This document shows, piece after piece, positions 1 through 3,867 of a stretch of DNA of 64,000 bases. Position numbers and translations under genes: made by a program. The notes beneath the pieces were generated by a model. That model searched no databases and was not told the DNA's origin. It saw only the letters and a program-made list of their open reading frames with translations. The stretch is from the NCBI GenBank assembly GCA_963677895.2, contig CAXXGJ010000038.1, forward strand, positions 576,001 to 640,000. The letters run 5' to 3'. The DNA is from Treponemataceae bacterium (GTDB taxonomy: Bacteria; Spirochaetota; Spirochaetia; Treponematales; Rectinemataceae). How positions within the stretch are numbered: the stretch's first letter is position 1; every line of letters starts with the position of its first letter.

Positions 1-727
1 CGTGGATCGCGGCGTCGGGGCTTTCAAGGCTCACCTGGGCTGTCCTCAAGCCCGCCTTGTAGAGGGACCGGGCGCGCTCGGGGCTCGCCAGCGTACCGTT
101 CGTGATCAAATTGACGCGAAGATGTATTCCGTCGGCATAGGCGATGAGCTCCTCGAGGTCAGCCCTGAGCAGCGGCTCCCCTCCGGTGAAGGAGAAAAAG
201 GGAATTTTGGCCTTTTCCCTGAAAATGTCGATGACGCGCTTGATTTCCCGCGTATCCATCTCTTCCGACGCCATGCCGGAAGGAAAGGCTTGCCCGGATC
301 CGCAGCTCCCGCCGCTTCCGCAGCCCGCGTAGCAGAAAAGGCAGCGATTGTTGCAGCGGTAGGTGACGGCTATCTCGCCCAGGATGGGGAGCCGGGTGAA
401 GTCAAAGCCGTAGGCGACCTGCTCGGTCGTCACCTGGCGGCCATCGCAGATATCTTTGATGTCCGAAAGAAAGCCGGCTATGTCGCGCAGCTTCGCCGCG
501 TCCATTCCCGGCAGCTTCTCGATTTTCTGGCCCGAATCGAGCGCCGCGAGGATCTTCACGCCCGTTTCATTGGTCTTGTAGACCATGTTGGGCGGAAGAA
601 TGACGACGTTGTCCTCCTCGCGCACGAACACGTAATCGCGTACGGATTTCCAGAATCCCGGCACCCAGGAGAGATCTGGTCGGTCGCCTTGGTTCCTTGT
701 GCGCGCGTTCTGATTGCCGCCGATCAA
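1..727 (-). CDS. Radical SAM protein (probable peptide/protein maturase, RRE-like N-terminus), 3' end outside window
   Basis: Manual translation of the minus strand from TTG at 727, which overlaps the upstream TGA and has GGAGG 6 nt upstream: ...EIAVTYRCNNRCLFCYAG...FSFTGGEPLLRADL...LITNGTL...QVSLES. CxxxCxxC lies at 332-355. Open to the window edge, hence absent from the ORF track. Confidence 0.92.
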   Translation of the reverse strand, partial: MIGGNQNARTRNQGDRPDLSWVPGFWKSVRDYVFVREEDNVVILPPNMVYKTNETGVKILAALDSGQKIEKLPGMDAAKLRDIAGFLSDIKDICDGRQVTTEQVAYGFDFTRLPILGEIAVTYRCNNRCLFCYAGCGSGGSCGSGQAFPSGMASEEMDTREIKRVIDIFREKAKIPFFSFTGGEPLLRADLEELIAYADGIHLRVNLITNGTLASPERARSLYKAGLRTAQVSLESPDAAIH

Positions 728-2451
728 TGACCGCCTCCGGATACGCAGGCCGAATGGCAGGCGGAGTGGCACGCCGAATGGCAGGCTGAATGACAAGCCG
801 AATGGCAGGCGTCGTGGCAAGCGTTGTGGCAGGCCGAATAGCAGGCCCCCGCCTGGCCTTCCTTGCCGGGCGTGAAGCAACCTGAGAAGCAGGCCGAGGA
901 GCGCATGAAATCGCTGTAACCCGTCGAGAGCGCCTCGGGAAGTCCCAGCCCCGAGAAGCGCGTGGGATGGGAATGGACATAGCAGTAGCCATGCCAGTAG
1001 TACCAGTAATGGTTCCGGGCGCGCCAGGCAAGCCGGCGCTCTTCGTCCATAAGCGCTTCGCCGCTTTTTCGCTCAGACTCCATCGTCTCGGCCTCGGCCA
1101 GCAGCGCCCGGTAATGAGCCTTCGTCGCTTCCATATCGCAGTCCCAGAGCTTTTCCTGGAGCCCTCGGATCGTCGCCTCGAAGAAGTCCATCATCAGGCC
1201 GGACAGCACCCTGCCCTCTGCGTCGAAGCAGGCGAGGAAACTTTCCTCGATCGCGTCCTTCGCCTCATTCCGGCTCAGGATGGAAATCCTCAAGGGATTT
1301 TCCTCCGCGATCTCGATGATTCCCTGACTGCGCAGCCCTTCCAGCATGAGGGCGACGACCCTGGCGAGGGGGAACTCGAAGAGAAGCGCCACTTCGGCGG
1401 GATGCAAATCCTCGGCCACCTTGCCCGGAACCTGGTAGGTTCCGGTGAACAGCTTGGGCGGCACCCAGGAATCGCCGGCCCAGGCGATTCCCTTCACGAG
1501 CGCGGCGCGCTTTCCGTAGCGGCGAAGGTTCAGCATGTAAAGGTAAAGCGCCAGCGCGATGAGCGCCGCGAAGGCCGGAACCGCGACGAGGGGATTCGCC
1601 AGCAGCCTGAGGCCGCGCAGGCTTTCTCCGTCACCGCCCGATCCTTCGGCGGCGCCCGGCCGCGCCATTGCCCCAGGTTGCCCAACGGCCCCAGGTTGCC
1701 CCGTAGCCCCCGCCTGCCCGGCCGCCTCATCGAAGACCGCCGACATGGGCAGATAGCCTTCGGGGAAATACAGCCGCAGGCGCTGGGTTTGCCGCGCCGC
1801 AAGCTTTTCCTGGAAAAACCTCAGCGTCAGGTAATACGAGCCGTCGTCGCCCTTCGATCCGTAGTAATCGATCTTGTTCTCGGCATTCACCGATTTTTCG
1901 GTTTTGAGAGGAACGCCTGAGCGCTCGGTTTCGGTGAGCGACTCGCCGCCTACCTTCATGGGGAGCACGAGCCTCACCGTCCGCGACGCCATGCCCGTAT
2001 CCCACTCGACAGGAGCCCAGTCGAAGTAGAAAAGATCCCCGAACTCCTGGCTGGTTGTCCTGCCGATGAGGCCGGCGCGGGCGAAATCCCCCGCATAGTG
2101 CAGGAAGTAGTAGGCGCTGCCGGAAAAGCCCTTGCCGCCCGCGAGGATGACATCGAATTTTCCCGAACCCATGGGCTTGATGGAAAGTGGCTGGCGGAGA
2201 CCGCCGGGGATATCGGCGTAGCAGCCGTTCATGTCCCAGACGGGCTCGAAGGTCTCGCCCTGGAAATAGAAACCGTGCATCTGGCCGCCCGAGGCTTCCC
2301 ATTTGAGGCTGTAGTACAGATCCGCTTTGCCGTCGGTCCGCAAAACCACCGTGATGTCGGCCGAATCCAGCGATGTCGAAAGAGCGGAAAGGCCGCCCAC
2401 GAGAGCGAAAAGCGCGATGGCGAGCATCGCCCCGAAACGCGTTCGTTTCAT
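724..2451 (-). CDS. DUF2207-like membrane protein with C-terminal Cys/His-rich (ACHS)n tail
   Basis: 575 aa: signal peptide, ITVVLRTDGKA start of an extracytoplasmic domain, one TM helix, LHPAEVALL motif, and tail ACYSACHNACHD(ACHS)5ACVSGGGH. Confidence 0.8.
   Translation of the reverse strand: MKRTRFGAMLAIALFALVGGLSALSTSLDSADITVVLRTDGKADLYYSLKWEASGGQMHGFYFQGETFEPVWDMNGCYADIPGGLRQPLSIKPMGSGKFDVILAGGKGFSGSAYYFLHYAGDFARAGLIGRTTSQEFGDLFYFDWAPVEWDTGMASRTVRLVLPMKVGGESLTETERSGVPLKTEKSVNAENKIDYYGSKGDDGSYYLTLRFFQEKLAARQTQRLRLYFPEGYLPMSAVFDEAAGQAGATGQPGAVGQPGAMARPGAAEGSGGDGESLRGLRLLANPLVAVPAFAALIALALYLYMLNLRRYGKRAALVKGIAWAGDSWVPPKLFTGTYQVPGKVAEDLHPAEVALLFEFPLARVVALMLEGLRSQGIIEIAEENPLRISILSRNEAKDAIEESFLACFDAEGRVLSGLMMDFFEATIRGLQEKLWDCDMEATKAHYRALLAEAETMESERKSGEALMDEERRLAWRARNHYWYYWHGYCYVHSHPTRFSGLGLPEALSTGYSDFMRSSACFSGCFTPGKEGQAGACYSACHNACHDACHSACHSACHSACHSACHSACVSGGGH
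739..846 (-). repeat. Nine in-frame 12-nt units encoding A-C-x-x repeats
   Basis: 108 nt = 9 x 4 codons; synonymous codons differ between units. Confidence 0.95.
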
Positions 2452-3068
2452 TCAATCTCCTCCCTGACCGACATGCGGCCGGACGCGGGCAAGCCGCCGT
2501 CTATCTGTATCCGCCGCTCCCGCAGAAGCCCCGCTTTTTCGCGCAGCGCCGCGGCGACGCGGCTTTCCGCGTCCGCGAAGGGGTCCGCGTCCTCCAGGCC
2601 GAAGCGTTTCTCGGTAGCGGCTTCGTCCTTTTCCTTCTGAAAAATGTCGACGATATCGAGCGCCTCGTCCAGCGCGGCGTCGGCTAGTGGATCGTCCTTG
2701 CCTTCCCGCCCGCAGGCATCCAGATACTCGCCCGCGGCCAGCGCGACGAGGCGGACGGCATCGGCCGCTGGCCCCTCGGCGATCCTGATCCGCGCCAATT
2801 TCTCCCTCGAGGCGGCGGCATGGCTCAGCTTCTTCGCCCTATCGCGCCCGAGCGCCGCGTCCCTGGCGGCGATGGCTGATTTAGGTCCAGCCCCGACTAA
2901 AAGAAAAATTAACCCGGCCGAAATTACGATGGCCGATCCTATCAAGAGCGCGAAGCCCGCCGGAAATCCGCCGGCGAGGCCCGCGAGCGCTGCGGCCAGT
3001 CCCGCGAAGCCGCTGCCGATCCCCAGCGGAGAGCGCGCGTACCATTTCAGATAATCCTTGGGAAGCAT
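2448..3068 (-). CDS. Hypothetical membrane protein (two N-terminal TM segments + helical domain)
   Basis: 206-aa ORF; ATGA overlap with the downstream gene at 2448-2451. Confidence 0.75.
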   Translation of the reverse strand: MLPKDYLKWYARSPLGIGSGFAGLAAALAGLAGGFPAGFALLIGSAIVISAGLIFLLVGAGPKSAIAARDAALGRDRAKKLSHAAASREKLARIRIAEGPAADAVRLVALAAGEYLDACGREGKDDPLADAALDEALDIVDIFQKEKDEAATEKRFGLEDADPFADAESRVAAALREKAGLLRERRIQIDGGLPASGRMSVREEIE

Positions 3069-3234: not shown

Positions 3235-3867
3235 ATGAAAAGTATCCGGACTAGTTTCTCCAGGCTCAGGCGCGGCGCCTTCCTGTCGGGCGCGGCGCTC
3301 GCCCTCGCCATGATCGCCGCGTCCTGCGCGACCACGCAGCCTGTCGTCTACAAACTGGACATCATTCCCGAGGCGAAGGCCAGGACCGAAATCGTGATGC
3401 CTCTTCTCACGACGTTGCGCGATTTCGGCAACAACATGGCGGCCCTCATGCTCACCGATTATCGCTTCGCGGAAATGAAGGAAACCGGCGGGGGCGCGTA
3501 TCTCTATCGTTTCGATAGAACGAACCAGAAACTTCCGCGCCACGCCTACATCGTATTCCGCCTCGAGGGGAGTCCGGCCATAACGACCAACCTCGGCGAA
3601 AAGAACTACATTCTCCTGGACGGCGGCTCCATAGGTCTCGTGCCCGCCGACGAACCGGCCGTCGTCGCCAACGGGAAATTCACTCTGCAGTTCACGAAGA
3701 GCGACTTCCGCGAGGCCTTCAATCCCTGGGTCATCGGCGAAAAAGGCAGCTACCCCGAACAGCTTCTCCTCTGGCTCAAGAACCCTGCCAGCAAGGAGGC
3801 GGACATGAAAAACCTGGCCTCGCTGCTGACGAGCGCCTTTCCGAGGATAGTCTACAAGATGAATTGA
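3235..3867 (+). CDS. Hypothetical lipoprotein
   Basis: GGAGG RBS; basic N-terminus, hydrophobic stretch and IAAS-C lipobox. Confidence 0.7.
   Translation: MKSIRTSFSRLRRGAFLSGAALALAMIAASCATTQPVVYKLDIIPEAKARTEIVMPLLTTLRDFGNNMAALMLTDYRFAEMKETGGGAYLYRFDRTNQKLPRHAYIVFRLEGSPAITTNLGEKNYILLDGGSIGLVPADEPAVVANGKFTLQFTKSDFREAFNPWVIGEKGSYPEQLLLWLKNPASKEADMKNLASLLTSAFPRIVYKMN

Follow-up and report, generated by a model that had tools for sequence, protein, structure and literature searches.

Can a radical S-adenosylmethionine (SAM) enzyme take the tail of a full-size membrane protein as its substrate? The question is raised by the first bases of a 64,000-nucleotide stretch of DNA from a spirochaete (the window; G000:C38:576001-640000), which hold most of an operon of four genes. 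The original prediction, made from the window alone, described three minus-strand reading frames. The first two (P0003 and P0002) are joined by an ATGA overlap at 2448-2451, and the second and third (P0002 and P0001) by a TTGA overlap at 724-727. The third was read as a radical SAM enzyme with a CxxxCxxC motif (355-332), and the second as a membrane protein whose cysteine-rich tail may be the substrate of that enzyme. Frames, overlaps, motif and tail sequence are all present as written. The fourth gene, P0004, and the SPASM domain of the enzyme lie beyond the window. P0001 and P0002, referred to here as the enzyme and the carrier, probably form a dedicated modification pair in the style of RiPPs (peptides that are ribosomally synthesized and then post-translationally modified), with a type I membrane protein as substrate. 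This reading rests on sequence and modelling. Support for such a substrate, in which the enzyme acts on the tail of the full-size membrane protein encoded next to it, comes from gene adjacency, the SPASM and RiPP recognition element (RRE) domains of the enzyme, a leader motif in the carrier, a complex prediction and the decay of the enzyme where the carrier is lost. The system itself is real, conserved and uncharacterised.

The P0001 gene extends 694 bases past the window start. With the contig sequence it encodes 473 residues, and by its domain profiles the product is a complete RRE/radical-SAM/SPASM protein, including the SPASM domain that the original prediction proposed to look for. It matches PF04055 at 95.2 bits (cut-off 29.5, E 6e-27) and the SPASM profile PF13186 at 41.8 bits (cut-off 21.5, E 1e-10), and SPASM is found in 49 of 49 family members. 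The RRE is recognised at the family level, where 28 of the 49 members match PF05402 at E<=1 (best 1.8e-8). An Atlas search with the RRE region gave a PqqD cluster as the first match (0.89), which is a lead only. Among 105 full-length members, C363, C381, C418, C421, C427 and C431 are invariant and C349 is present in 102. These are the seven conserved cysteines of the SPASM region; there is no eighth after C431, and C366 is present in 47. The best profile matches among solved structures, in a comparison that did not include HaaB, are SkfB (E 5.9e-32) and PqqE, with ChlB at E 6.8e-6. PADLOC gives the enzyme a general viperin likeness only and finds nothing for P0002-P0004.

P0001 reaches no NCBIfam cut-off. 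The best scores belong to the heme enzymes AhbD (139 bits) and NirJ2 (117 bits), both with cut-offs of 500, and PapB (54 of 340 bits), StsB (72 of 625) and HxsC4 (69 of 500) score lower. The other ranthipeptide and sactipeptide maturases CteB, SkfB, CrpC and QhpD fall below the 25th row, which scores about 52 bits. No triceptide-synthase model is among the 25 best rows, and neither is TIGR04463 or TIGR04115 (cut-off 350). Clustering with small-molecule cofactor enzymes, which had been named in advance as an outcome that would count against a peptide-type maturase, is not seen, with the caveat that AhbD heads these scores.

The tail of P0002 contains nine cysteines at four-residue spacing (C537-C569), preceded by C521 and C525, and its pattern occurs once in the genome. 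Relatives were collected from GTDB with P0002 as query, using words from outside the tail, which gave 73 loci, 67 of them with a complete tail. Exactly nine cysteines are found in 65 of these 67. Cysteine at every fourth residue had been taken as the defining pattern; the spacing holds in P0002, but the conserved unit, as read from 150 distinct tails, is His-x-Ala-Cys (H-x-A-C) and not Cxxx. Over 1253 Cys-to-Cys steps, the residue at -3 is His in 1172, Tyr in 58, Phe in 2 and Val in five, and Ala stands at -1 in 1233. With an aromatic residue at -3 in 1232 steps and Ala supplying a beta-carbon at X3, the tails also match the aromatic-X2-X3 motif of the triceptide type. The middle residue varies (Ser 921, Asp 160, Asn 90), and Tyr or Phe in place of His falls in the first units. 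Spacing is lengthened to five or six in 53 steps (eight insert types). All 53 keep H-x-x-C, and 41 lose the aromatic residue directly after the previous Cys.

A 12-base periodic repeat in coding DNA could in principle be the product of recent slippage or an assembly artefact with no selected role. This explanation was rejected and is given next to no weight: the nine-cysteine count holds in 65 of 67 species-level loci, a like tail is kept in relatives at 25-35% identity, and the repeat is written in mixed synonymous codons. The 3300-base stretch is also intact in one contig of one public DNA run with zero differences, and this run may be the source of the DNA studied here.

The tail appears to share a compartment with the enzyme. 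A hydropathy window of at least 1.8 marks the membrane helix in 116 of 124 carriers, and summed over these 124 there are 494 Lys and Arg residues after the helix and 224 before it. This excess places the leader and the tail in the cytoplasm. The topology bears on a further explanation, in which overlapping CxxxCH motifs form a heme-attachment array and an AhbD-like enzyme makes or attaches the heme. C-x3-C-H does occur seven times in the tail and AhbD is the top NCBIfam row, but that row is far under its cut-off, the motifs share cysteines, the tail is cytoplasmic, and the enzyme has an RRE. The lengthened units, in which Cys-His adjacency is mostly lost and H-x-x-C never, also speak against a heme array, which is very improbable.

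The carrier contains an internal segment that resembles a RiPP leader. The motif [WYF]xxPx[LIVM] is matched by 116 of 117 distinct relatives (Trp in 96, Tyr in 21; P332 in all 117). It lies a median of 22 residues past the membrane helix and 205 residues before the first unit. The same motif, published as [Y/W]xxPx[L/V/I/F/A], is found in lasso, PQQ and some sactipeptide leaders, and binds the RRE between beta-3 and alpha-3 (PMC13381572, PMC12710340; here and below, sources are cited from excerpts of their text). As a control, it is present in 2 of 26 distinct segments from ordinary DUF2207 proteins, a family to which the carrier is remotely related. The gap to the next conserved motif is 3-4 residues in ordinary DUF2207 proteins and 16-17 in 123 of 124 carriers; the leader lies within a 12-13-residue stretch absent from the ordinary proteins. 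On the enzyme side, all 79 Trp-leaders go with Phe at RRE residue 86 and 15 of 16 Tyr-leaders go with Leu there, a pattern that amounts to one clade split.

For complex prediction, the enzyme was folded with carrier residues 315-575 and with three controls. The carrier pair scored 0.82 and the best control 0.00. Of 157 solved complexes, 116 reach the mark used for this score, as do 2 of 215 mismatched pairs; the mark is only roughly valid for the alignments used here. The runs share at least 41% of contacts, with a partner pLDDT of at least 63. The confident predicted contacts place RRE residues 50-56 and 82-90 on carrier residues 329-340.

A docked enzyme could leave the tail unmodified. Cysteine and histidine are the usual metal ligands, and the tail may be a metal or Fe-S helix, with the enzyme either loading metal only or acting on another substrate, be it P0004, a lipid or a small molecule. 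The AlphaFold model shows a single helix for the tail, with low confidence, the complex prediction backs the contact between RRE and leader only, and the two heme enzymes with the best NCBIfam scores would suit such a role, although at 139 and 117 bits both are far from 500. Tyr or Phe in place of His in the first units would suit a radical acceptor more than a ligand. In the systems described in PMC12710340 and PMC13692751, an RRE together with its recognition motif marks the bound chain as the substrate. An unmodified tail is considered unlikely, and modification of the tail by P0001 is preferred.

Carrier and enzyme are strictly coupled. In every one of the 65 GTDB loci that extend 300 bases or more downstream, the carrier is directly followed by the enzyme, the opposite of what would be seen if homologues mostly lacked an adjacent radical SAM gene. 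A TTG or CTG overlapping the carrier stop, in the enzyme frame, is present in all 53 complete GTDB pairs. Close relatives of P0002 are from Rectinemataceae and Treponemataceae, and one locus (L044) is from Rectinema subterraneum, a cultured host. Among 401 Spirochaetota genomes, 26 have a strong carrier match and all 26 have the enzyme adjoining. The enzyme is found in 30, and in two of the extra four it lies at a contig edge with carrier pieces present. In Planctomycetota, 18 of 301 genomes match a Pirellulaceae locus (L074) at E<=1e-10, with the enzyme next to the carrier in 10 of 10 loci fetched. One relative is named from Candidatus Ozemobacteraceae. The conservation of the neighbourhood, which had been proposed as a check, is found in GTDB, Spirochaetota and Planctomycetota loci alike.

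A metagenome scan with the tail only gave at least 120 loci. Among those listed, the tail is C-terminal in 114 of 120. Sufficient upstream DNA is available in 64, of which 61 fit the carrier profile in regions other than the tail. Among those listed with 1 kb downstream (63 loci), the enzyme is no more than 400 bases away in 49 and no more than 3.5 kb away in 57. In viral contigs, 103 pattern matches included none with an enzyme of the P0001 family, and those rich in repeats seemed to be unrelated repeat sequences read in frame. The distances between carriers and those between enzymes are correlated (Spearman 0.90, 95 pairs), but this was discounted as evidence because shared ancestry explains it.

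Loss of the carrier is accompanied by decay of the enzyme. The test used 75 positions at least 95% conserved in 105 carrier-linked enzymes, which differ at a median of 0 of them (maximum 7). Genome G377 (3 contigs, 96% complete) retains only the first 67 carrier codons at the syntenic locus. Its enzyme differs at 16 of the 75 positions, including two SPASM cysteines (C363Y, C431F), and it also has no coiled-coil gene. Genome G296 (50 contigs) gave no carrier match with the protein of its congener as query, and its enzyme differs at 13 of 75. Five control enzymes from outside the sample differ at 1-3. Decay of the enzyme without the carrier, as judged from these substitutions, is the result expected if the enzyme is kept for the carrier.

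Several points weigh against a dedicated pair acting on the tail. The tail is not among the confident contacts of the complex prediction, and the high score may partly stem from likeness to solved RRE-leader structures. An aromatic-x-P-P after the helix is also present in many ordinary DUF2207 proteins, so the leader motif is partly ancestral; it may represent an ancestral P-P motif that was extended. The PF05402 score of P0001 itself is sub-threshold (E 0.13). In the thioether former CrpC, three cysteines bind AuxI and four bind AuxII (PMC13692751); compared by position, P0001 has the extra upstream C349 and no conserved last AuxII cysteine. Among the 63 metagenome loci, no enzyme was seen in five, four of which have less than 2.6 kb of DNA, and one has the enzyme upstream. 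G377 and G296 belong to one genus and may represent one loss event, and counts throughout were taken over related sequences rather than independent events. A moderately hydrophobic window is also found past the motif in 82 of 124 carriers (up to 1.75 in P0002). This would place the tail outside if it were a second membrane span; in P0002, the model folds the helix concerned (352-373) into the soluble domain.

A mechanism can be proposed. The RRE is predicted to bind WxxPxL as an internal leader, which would hold the enzyme at the membrane. The enzyme would then oxidatively cross-link the H-x-A-C units one after another, with a loss of 2 Da each. The product would remain attached to the carrier, forming a rigid His/S array that binds a metal or a partner. 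This array may belong to a small complex in the envelope, together with P0004 or, in another subfamily, with a coiled-coil protein and a membrane zinc-ribbon protein.

Two kinds of link fit the unit. If the tail is modified, the chances are about even that the product is a thioether from the Cys sulfur to the -3 residue, probably at the His beta-carbon. Such a link would account for Cys being invariant and is compatible with Tyr and Phe, and also with Val in the five cases. A cyclophane between His C2 and the Ala beta-carbon, as formed by HaaB, is less likely; it would account for the invariant Ala and the aromatic residue but not for Val, and the Cys would be left free with no role in the reaction. 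Any other outcome is less probable again. The thioether chemistry of the original prediction is thus the likelier of the two options, while the His-Ala cyclophane also fits H-x-A-C. PapB follows a CX3D-type logic. This does not apply here, since H-x-x-C is kept in every lengthened unit. The precursors of TvgB illustrate that repeats can yield unexpected chemistry (PMC9062424).

The biological role is the weakest step. A rigid His/S array joined to an outer ligand-type domain suggests envelope or metal sensing, and a role in envelope or metal stress or sensing is offered tentatively. In bufferins, copper is bound through RiPP modifications derived from Cys (PMC12452194), and HxsA keeps phage DNA from entering (PMC13128918). 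A bolder proposal is that an internal juxtamembrane leader, acquired by a DUF2207-type membrane protein, lets the enzyme install some eight His-based cross-links in tandem (His-Cys thioethers, or His-Ala cyclophanes next to free thiols), and that the tail always stays in place. RiPP-type maturation would then serve, in several bacterial phyla, to build a lasting metal-binding or signalling module on a transmembrane protein, and the link type would be one so far undescribed in proteins. This may be so, but falls somewhat short of an even chance.

Whether the product is kept or set free depends on the neighbours. A total of 4403 frames from 155 loci were clustered. Local synteny aside, the only recurring clusters are those of carrier and enzyme, of P0003 and P0004, and, in the second subfamily, of the coiled-coil and membrane zinc-ribbon proteins. 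No conserved protease or exporter was recognised among these neighbours, with minor clusters judged by eye and not by profile. This absence makes a tethered product likelier than a released peptide. The carrier, with an outer domain, one helix and an inner domain, resembles signal transducers that are cut. A modified tail could likewise be clipped in response to an envelope cue, with a protease setting it free as a peptide signal or product, and HxsA of the HXS system is matured by radical SAM enzymes and cleaved (PMC13128918). The stretch ahead of the tail differs between the subfamilies and holds no common cut-site motif. A housekeeping protease may still act on the tail. Release, which had been put forward as a second option together with a search for nearby proteases, gains no support from the 155 loci and is held to be slightly less probable than an unmodified tail. 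Retention on the carrier is preferred.

The positions of the genes and features are given in Table 1.

Table 1. Genes, protein segments and sequence signals of the carrier-enzyme locus, with two loci of enzyme decay. Positions are those of the window unless a contig or locus is named.
Feature	Position	Strand	Description
P0003	2448..3068	-	206 aa; N-terminal hydrophobic hairpin and helical C-terminus; accessory, mostly spirochaetes
P0002, carrier/putative substrate	724..2451	-	575 aa; single-pass membrane protein
Signal-peptide-like N-terminus	2380..2451	-	About residues 1-24; judged by basic start and hydrophobic helix
Extracytoplasmic beta-sandwich	1747..2379	-	Residues 25-235; AlphaFold pLDDT ~90-97
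Transmembrane helix	1528..1593	-	About residues 287-308, then RRYGKR (positive inside); by hydropathy
Internal leader/RRE recognition segment	1432..1467	-	W329-Q340, WxxPxL
Cytoplasmic alpha/beta domain	952..1416	-	About residues 346-500; homologous to the start of DUF2207_C
C-terminal tail, presumed core	724..894	-	CFSGC, spacer, C537 and eight (H/Y)-x-A-C units, VSGGGH end
GGAGG	734..738	-	Likely ribosome-binding site for the P0001 TTG; within the last codons of the carrier, six bases ahead
P0001, enzyme, 5' part	1..727	-	473 aa from TTG; full gene G000:C38:575306-576727
RRE (PqqD-like) domain	413..676	-	About residues 18-105
CxxxCxxC radical SAM cluster motif	332..355	-	C125, C129, C132; invariant in 105/105 full-length family members
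P0004	G000:C38:574429-575301 (outside window)		290-aa membrane protein, 4th gene
Degenerate enzyme locus, G377	L344:7092-8756		Carrier deleted, enzyme frame still open
Degenerate enzyme locus, G296	L346:50-1423		Carrier deleted, enzyme frame still open

P0004 starts five bases after the P0001 stop. No sigma-70-like promoter was found directly ahead of the operon, in what is a weak test. No RNA runs containing the stretch were listed; one possible RNA run has a small share and is probably DNA. One database record of 937 aa (P0187) joins a tail-less carrier to the enzyme. Its junction resembles the other frame of the tail, and it is probably an assembly frameshift.

P0003 is an accessory protein. 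Among loci with enough upstream DNA, a homologue is present in 48 of 54 from GTDB, 7 of 22 metagenome type-1 loci and 0 of 15 type-2 loci. P0004 is more constant, with a homologue in 47 of 47 GTDB and 22 of 26 metagenome type-1 loci that have enough downstream DNA. No family and no solved structure was found for either protein, and in the case of P0003 the Pfam and NCBIfam searches included 16 homologues. The second subfamily (L075, L091, L094, L103, L105, L201, L202 and others) has a Tyr leader, Val inserted in its tails and carriers of up to about 1060 aa. Downstream, these loci encode a coiled-coil protein of 380-420 aa (14 of 16 loci) and a membrane/zinc-ribbon protein that replaces P0004. 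In metagenome loci L079, L113, L119 and L133, a 130-aa protein of no known family lies ahead of the carrier. A plus-strand gene that converges on P0004 (G000:C38:573023-574432) is presumably a U32-family-like peptidase and adjoins the operon in 5 loci only. On the other side, a divergent gene (window 3235-3867, plus strand) encodes a putative lipoprotein of 210 aa with no family above cut-off.

The carrier is composed of two folded domains on either side of one membrane helix. AlphaFold gives a signal-like helix, the confident beta-sandwich (residues 25-235), a loose linker and the long membrane helix. The C-terminal half follows as an extended segment (320-345), the alpha/beta domain and the tail. 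The outer domain has a fold like the lumenal domain of ribophorin-I/Ost1 (6c26_1: VIA Z 15.0, rmsd 2.9, 184 residues aligned; Foldseek on the outer domain E 2.6e-7), and also resembles the N-terminal domain of M1 aminopeptidases. A fold shared with these proteins reveals no function. No solved structure was found for the inner domain by sequence. It has a weak fold likeness to GOLPH3/Vps74 (GPP34), with VIA Z 6.3 and 5.5 (rmsd 4.7 and 137 residues aligned for the Z 6.3 match). These are the only two matches among 48,161 chains at Z>=5, and with a Foldseek E of about 1 they are a lead only.

The original prediction treated the carrier as DUF2207-like. Membership does not hold for P0002 in a direct search, which gave no Pfam hit at E 0.1 and did not reach the cut-offs of PF09972 and PF20990. 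Remote homology is found by other routes. PF09972 is matched by 9 of 23 relatives at E<=1 (best 4.6e-5), and two database relatives bear a precomputed PF09972 label. In profile-profile comparison with HHalign, the inner domain matches DUF2207_C with a probability of 94.8% (E 5e-8; reversed control 0.07%) and the outer domain matches DUF2207 with 42.7% (reversed control 1.5%). A comparison of a profile with the single sequence of one DUF2207 protein gave no match. On profile comparison, P0002 is a remote relative of DUF2207 and not a member.

Ordinary DUF2207 proteins (PF09972/PF20990), e.g., E. coli YciQ and S. mutans SMU.243, share the order of outer N-terminal domain, helix and inner domain. 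They differ in having no leader insert and in a C-terminus of Gly/Ser and W/R, where the carrier has H-x-A-C units. No radical SAM gene was found within about 1.5 kb of ordinary DUF2207 genes. The genetics found for the family are a stress-tolerance and biofilm phenotype in S. mutans (PMC10457818), and the carrier would provide a handle on the function of DUF2207-type proteins. In one metagenome fragment (L188), the Cys units continue into a DUF2207-type Gly/Ser end with a terminal Trp, a possible intermediate form.

H-x-A-C units are also found in free proteins of 124-229 aa (P0171, P0174, P0175) with a signal-like start and a GSRGWR end. The tail scan, whose pattern ended in A-C-V, was blind to them. 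Examples are encoded on a Pseudomonas aeruginosa plasmid (NZ_CP018048.1; L349:6689-7063) and a Rhizobium plasmid (L348:6001-6405). The P. aeruginosa gene has as neighbours four genes annotated as radical SAM, a SPASM gene and genes for type II secretion, and 128 Pseudomonas plasmid records match the GSRGWR end. The enzymes beside these proteins are not of the P0001 family (at most 39 bits), and the free proteins are apparently part of a separate, multi-enzyme and unnamed system.

The known substrates of RiPP-type enzymes are short peptides and a few proteins (QhpC, CrpA, HxsA). Here a single membrane protein appears to contain both leader and core, separated by about 205 residues that include a folded domain. 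If this is true, membrane proteins too are matured by RRE-guided chemistry, and substrates of this kind escape precursor searches confined to short reading frames. A direct test is offered by a soluble fragment of 261 residues, one enzyme and a four-residue docking motif, with up to eight steps of -2 Da predicted. No description of the carrier-enzyme system was found in the literature searched, a search that lay outside supplementary tables such as those of PMC13692751, PMC9062424 and PMC12710340.

The nearest known system by layout is CrpA/CrpC of Methanococcus voltae (TIGR04463), where an RRE/radical-SAM/SPASM enzyme likewise adjoins a large protein with a Cys-rich C-terminal repeat (PMC13692751). 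Ranthionine links were shown on CrpA, which is a protein rather than a short peptide. CrpA differs in its N-terminal leader and in a repeat of 17 residues that contains C-x-x-Q/D, and the text searched makes no mention of a membrane anchor (PMC13692751). In QhpC/QhpD, an RRE-guided radical SAM enzyme also installs several thioethers in a protein subunit that is retained. QhpC is a small soluble subunit with an N-terminal leader and Cys-Asp/Glu links, with neither a repeat nor a membrane anchor in the part of the source covered (PMC13692751).

The triceptide synthases HaaB and HtkB recognize an aromatic-x-X3 motif, and HaaB links His C2 to the Ala beta-carbon in HAA, which matches the H-x-A of the carrier. 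Their precursors are short and have no Cys after each motif (PMC11499958). The CXXX-repeat system (target TIGR04117, maturase TIGR04115), known in silico only, has Cys at about every fourth residue, as in the carrier. TIGR04117 (98 positions, cut-off 50 bits) is weakly matched by 13 of 23 carriers (best E 0.0014; P0002 7.3 bits). In the genome, there is no TIGR04117 target above cut-off and no TIGR04115 match.

Two further systems involve envelope proteins. TIGR04222 proteins are membrane proteins whose Cys-bearing C-terminal tail is proposed as the substrate of a RiPP enzyme. They differ in enzyme class (MNIO), in having several helices, in a Gly/Ser-rich tail predicted outside and in loose association (PMC12452194). 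The family is tied in that source to MNIO enzymes only. One TIGR04222 protein with a Cys/Gly tail (L237:1369-3309, G156:C70; PF20990 E 2.4e-6) is encoded directly before a 336-aa radical SAM/SPASM gene without room for an RRE. In the HXS antiphage system, too, an envelope protein whose repeats contain His is matured by radical SAM chemistry. The system has two enzymes and HxsD, H-x-S repeats, a +8 Da change and an effector that is cleaved and exported (PMC13128918). The locus described here, with an H-x-A-C unit and a single enzyme, is outside the HXS definition. As far as sequence can tell, it is also not a RiPP in the strict sense: the carriers are full-size membrane proteins, the motif is internal, and no conserved protease is seen. 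The system appears to work like RRE-guided RiPP maturation on a protein, as in CrpA and QhpC, yet it is outside every named family tested. It is distinguished by a leader that is both internal and juxtamembrane, by a substrate bound to the membrane and by a core of H-x-A-C units.

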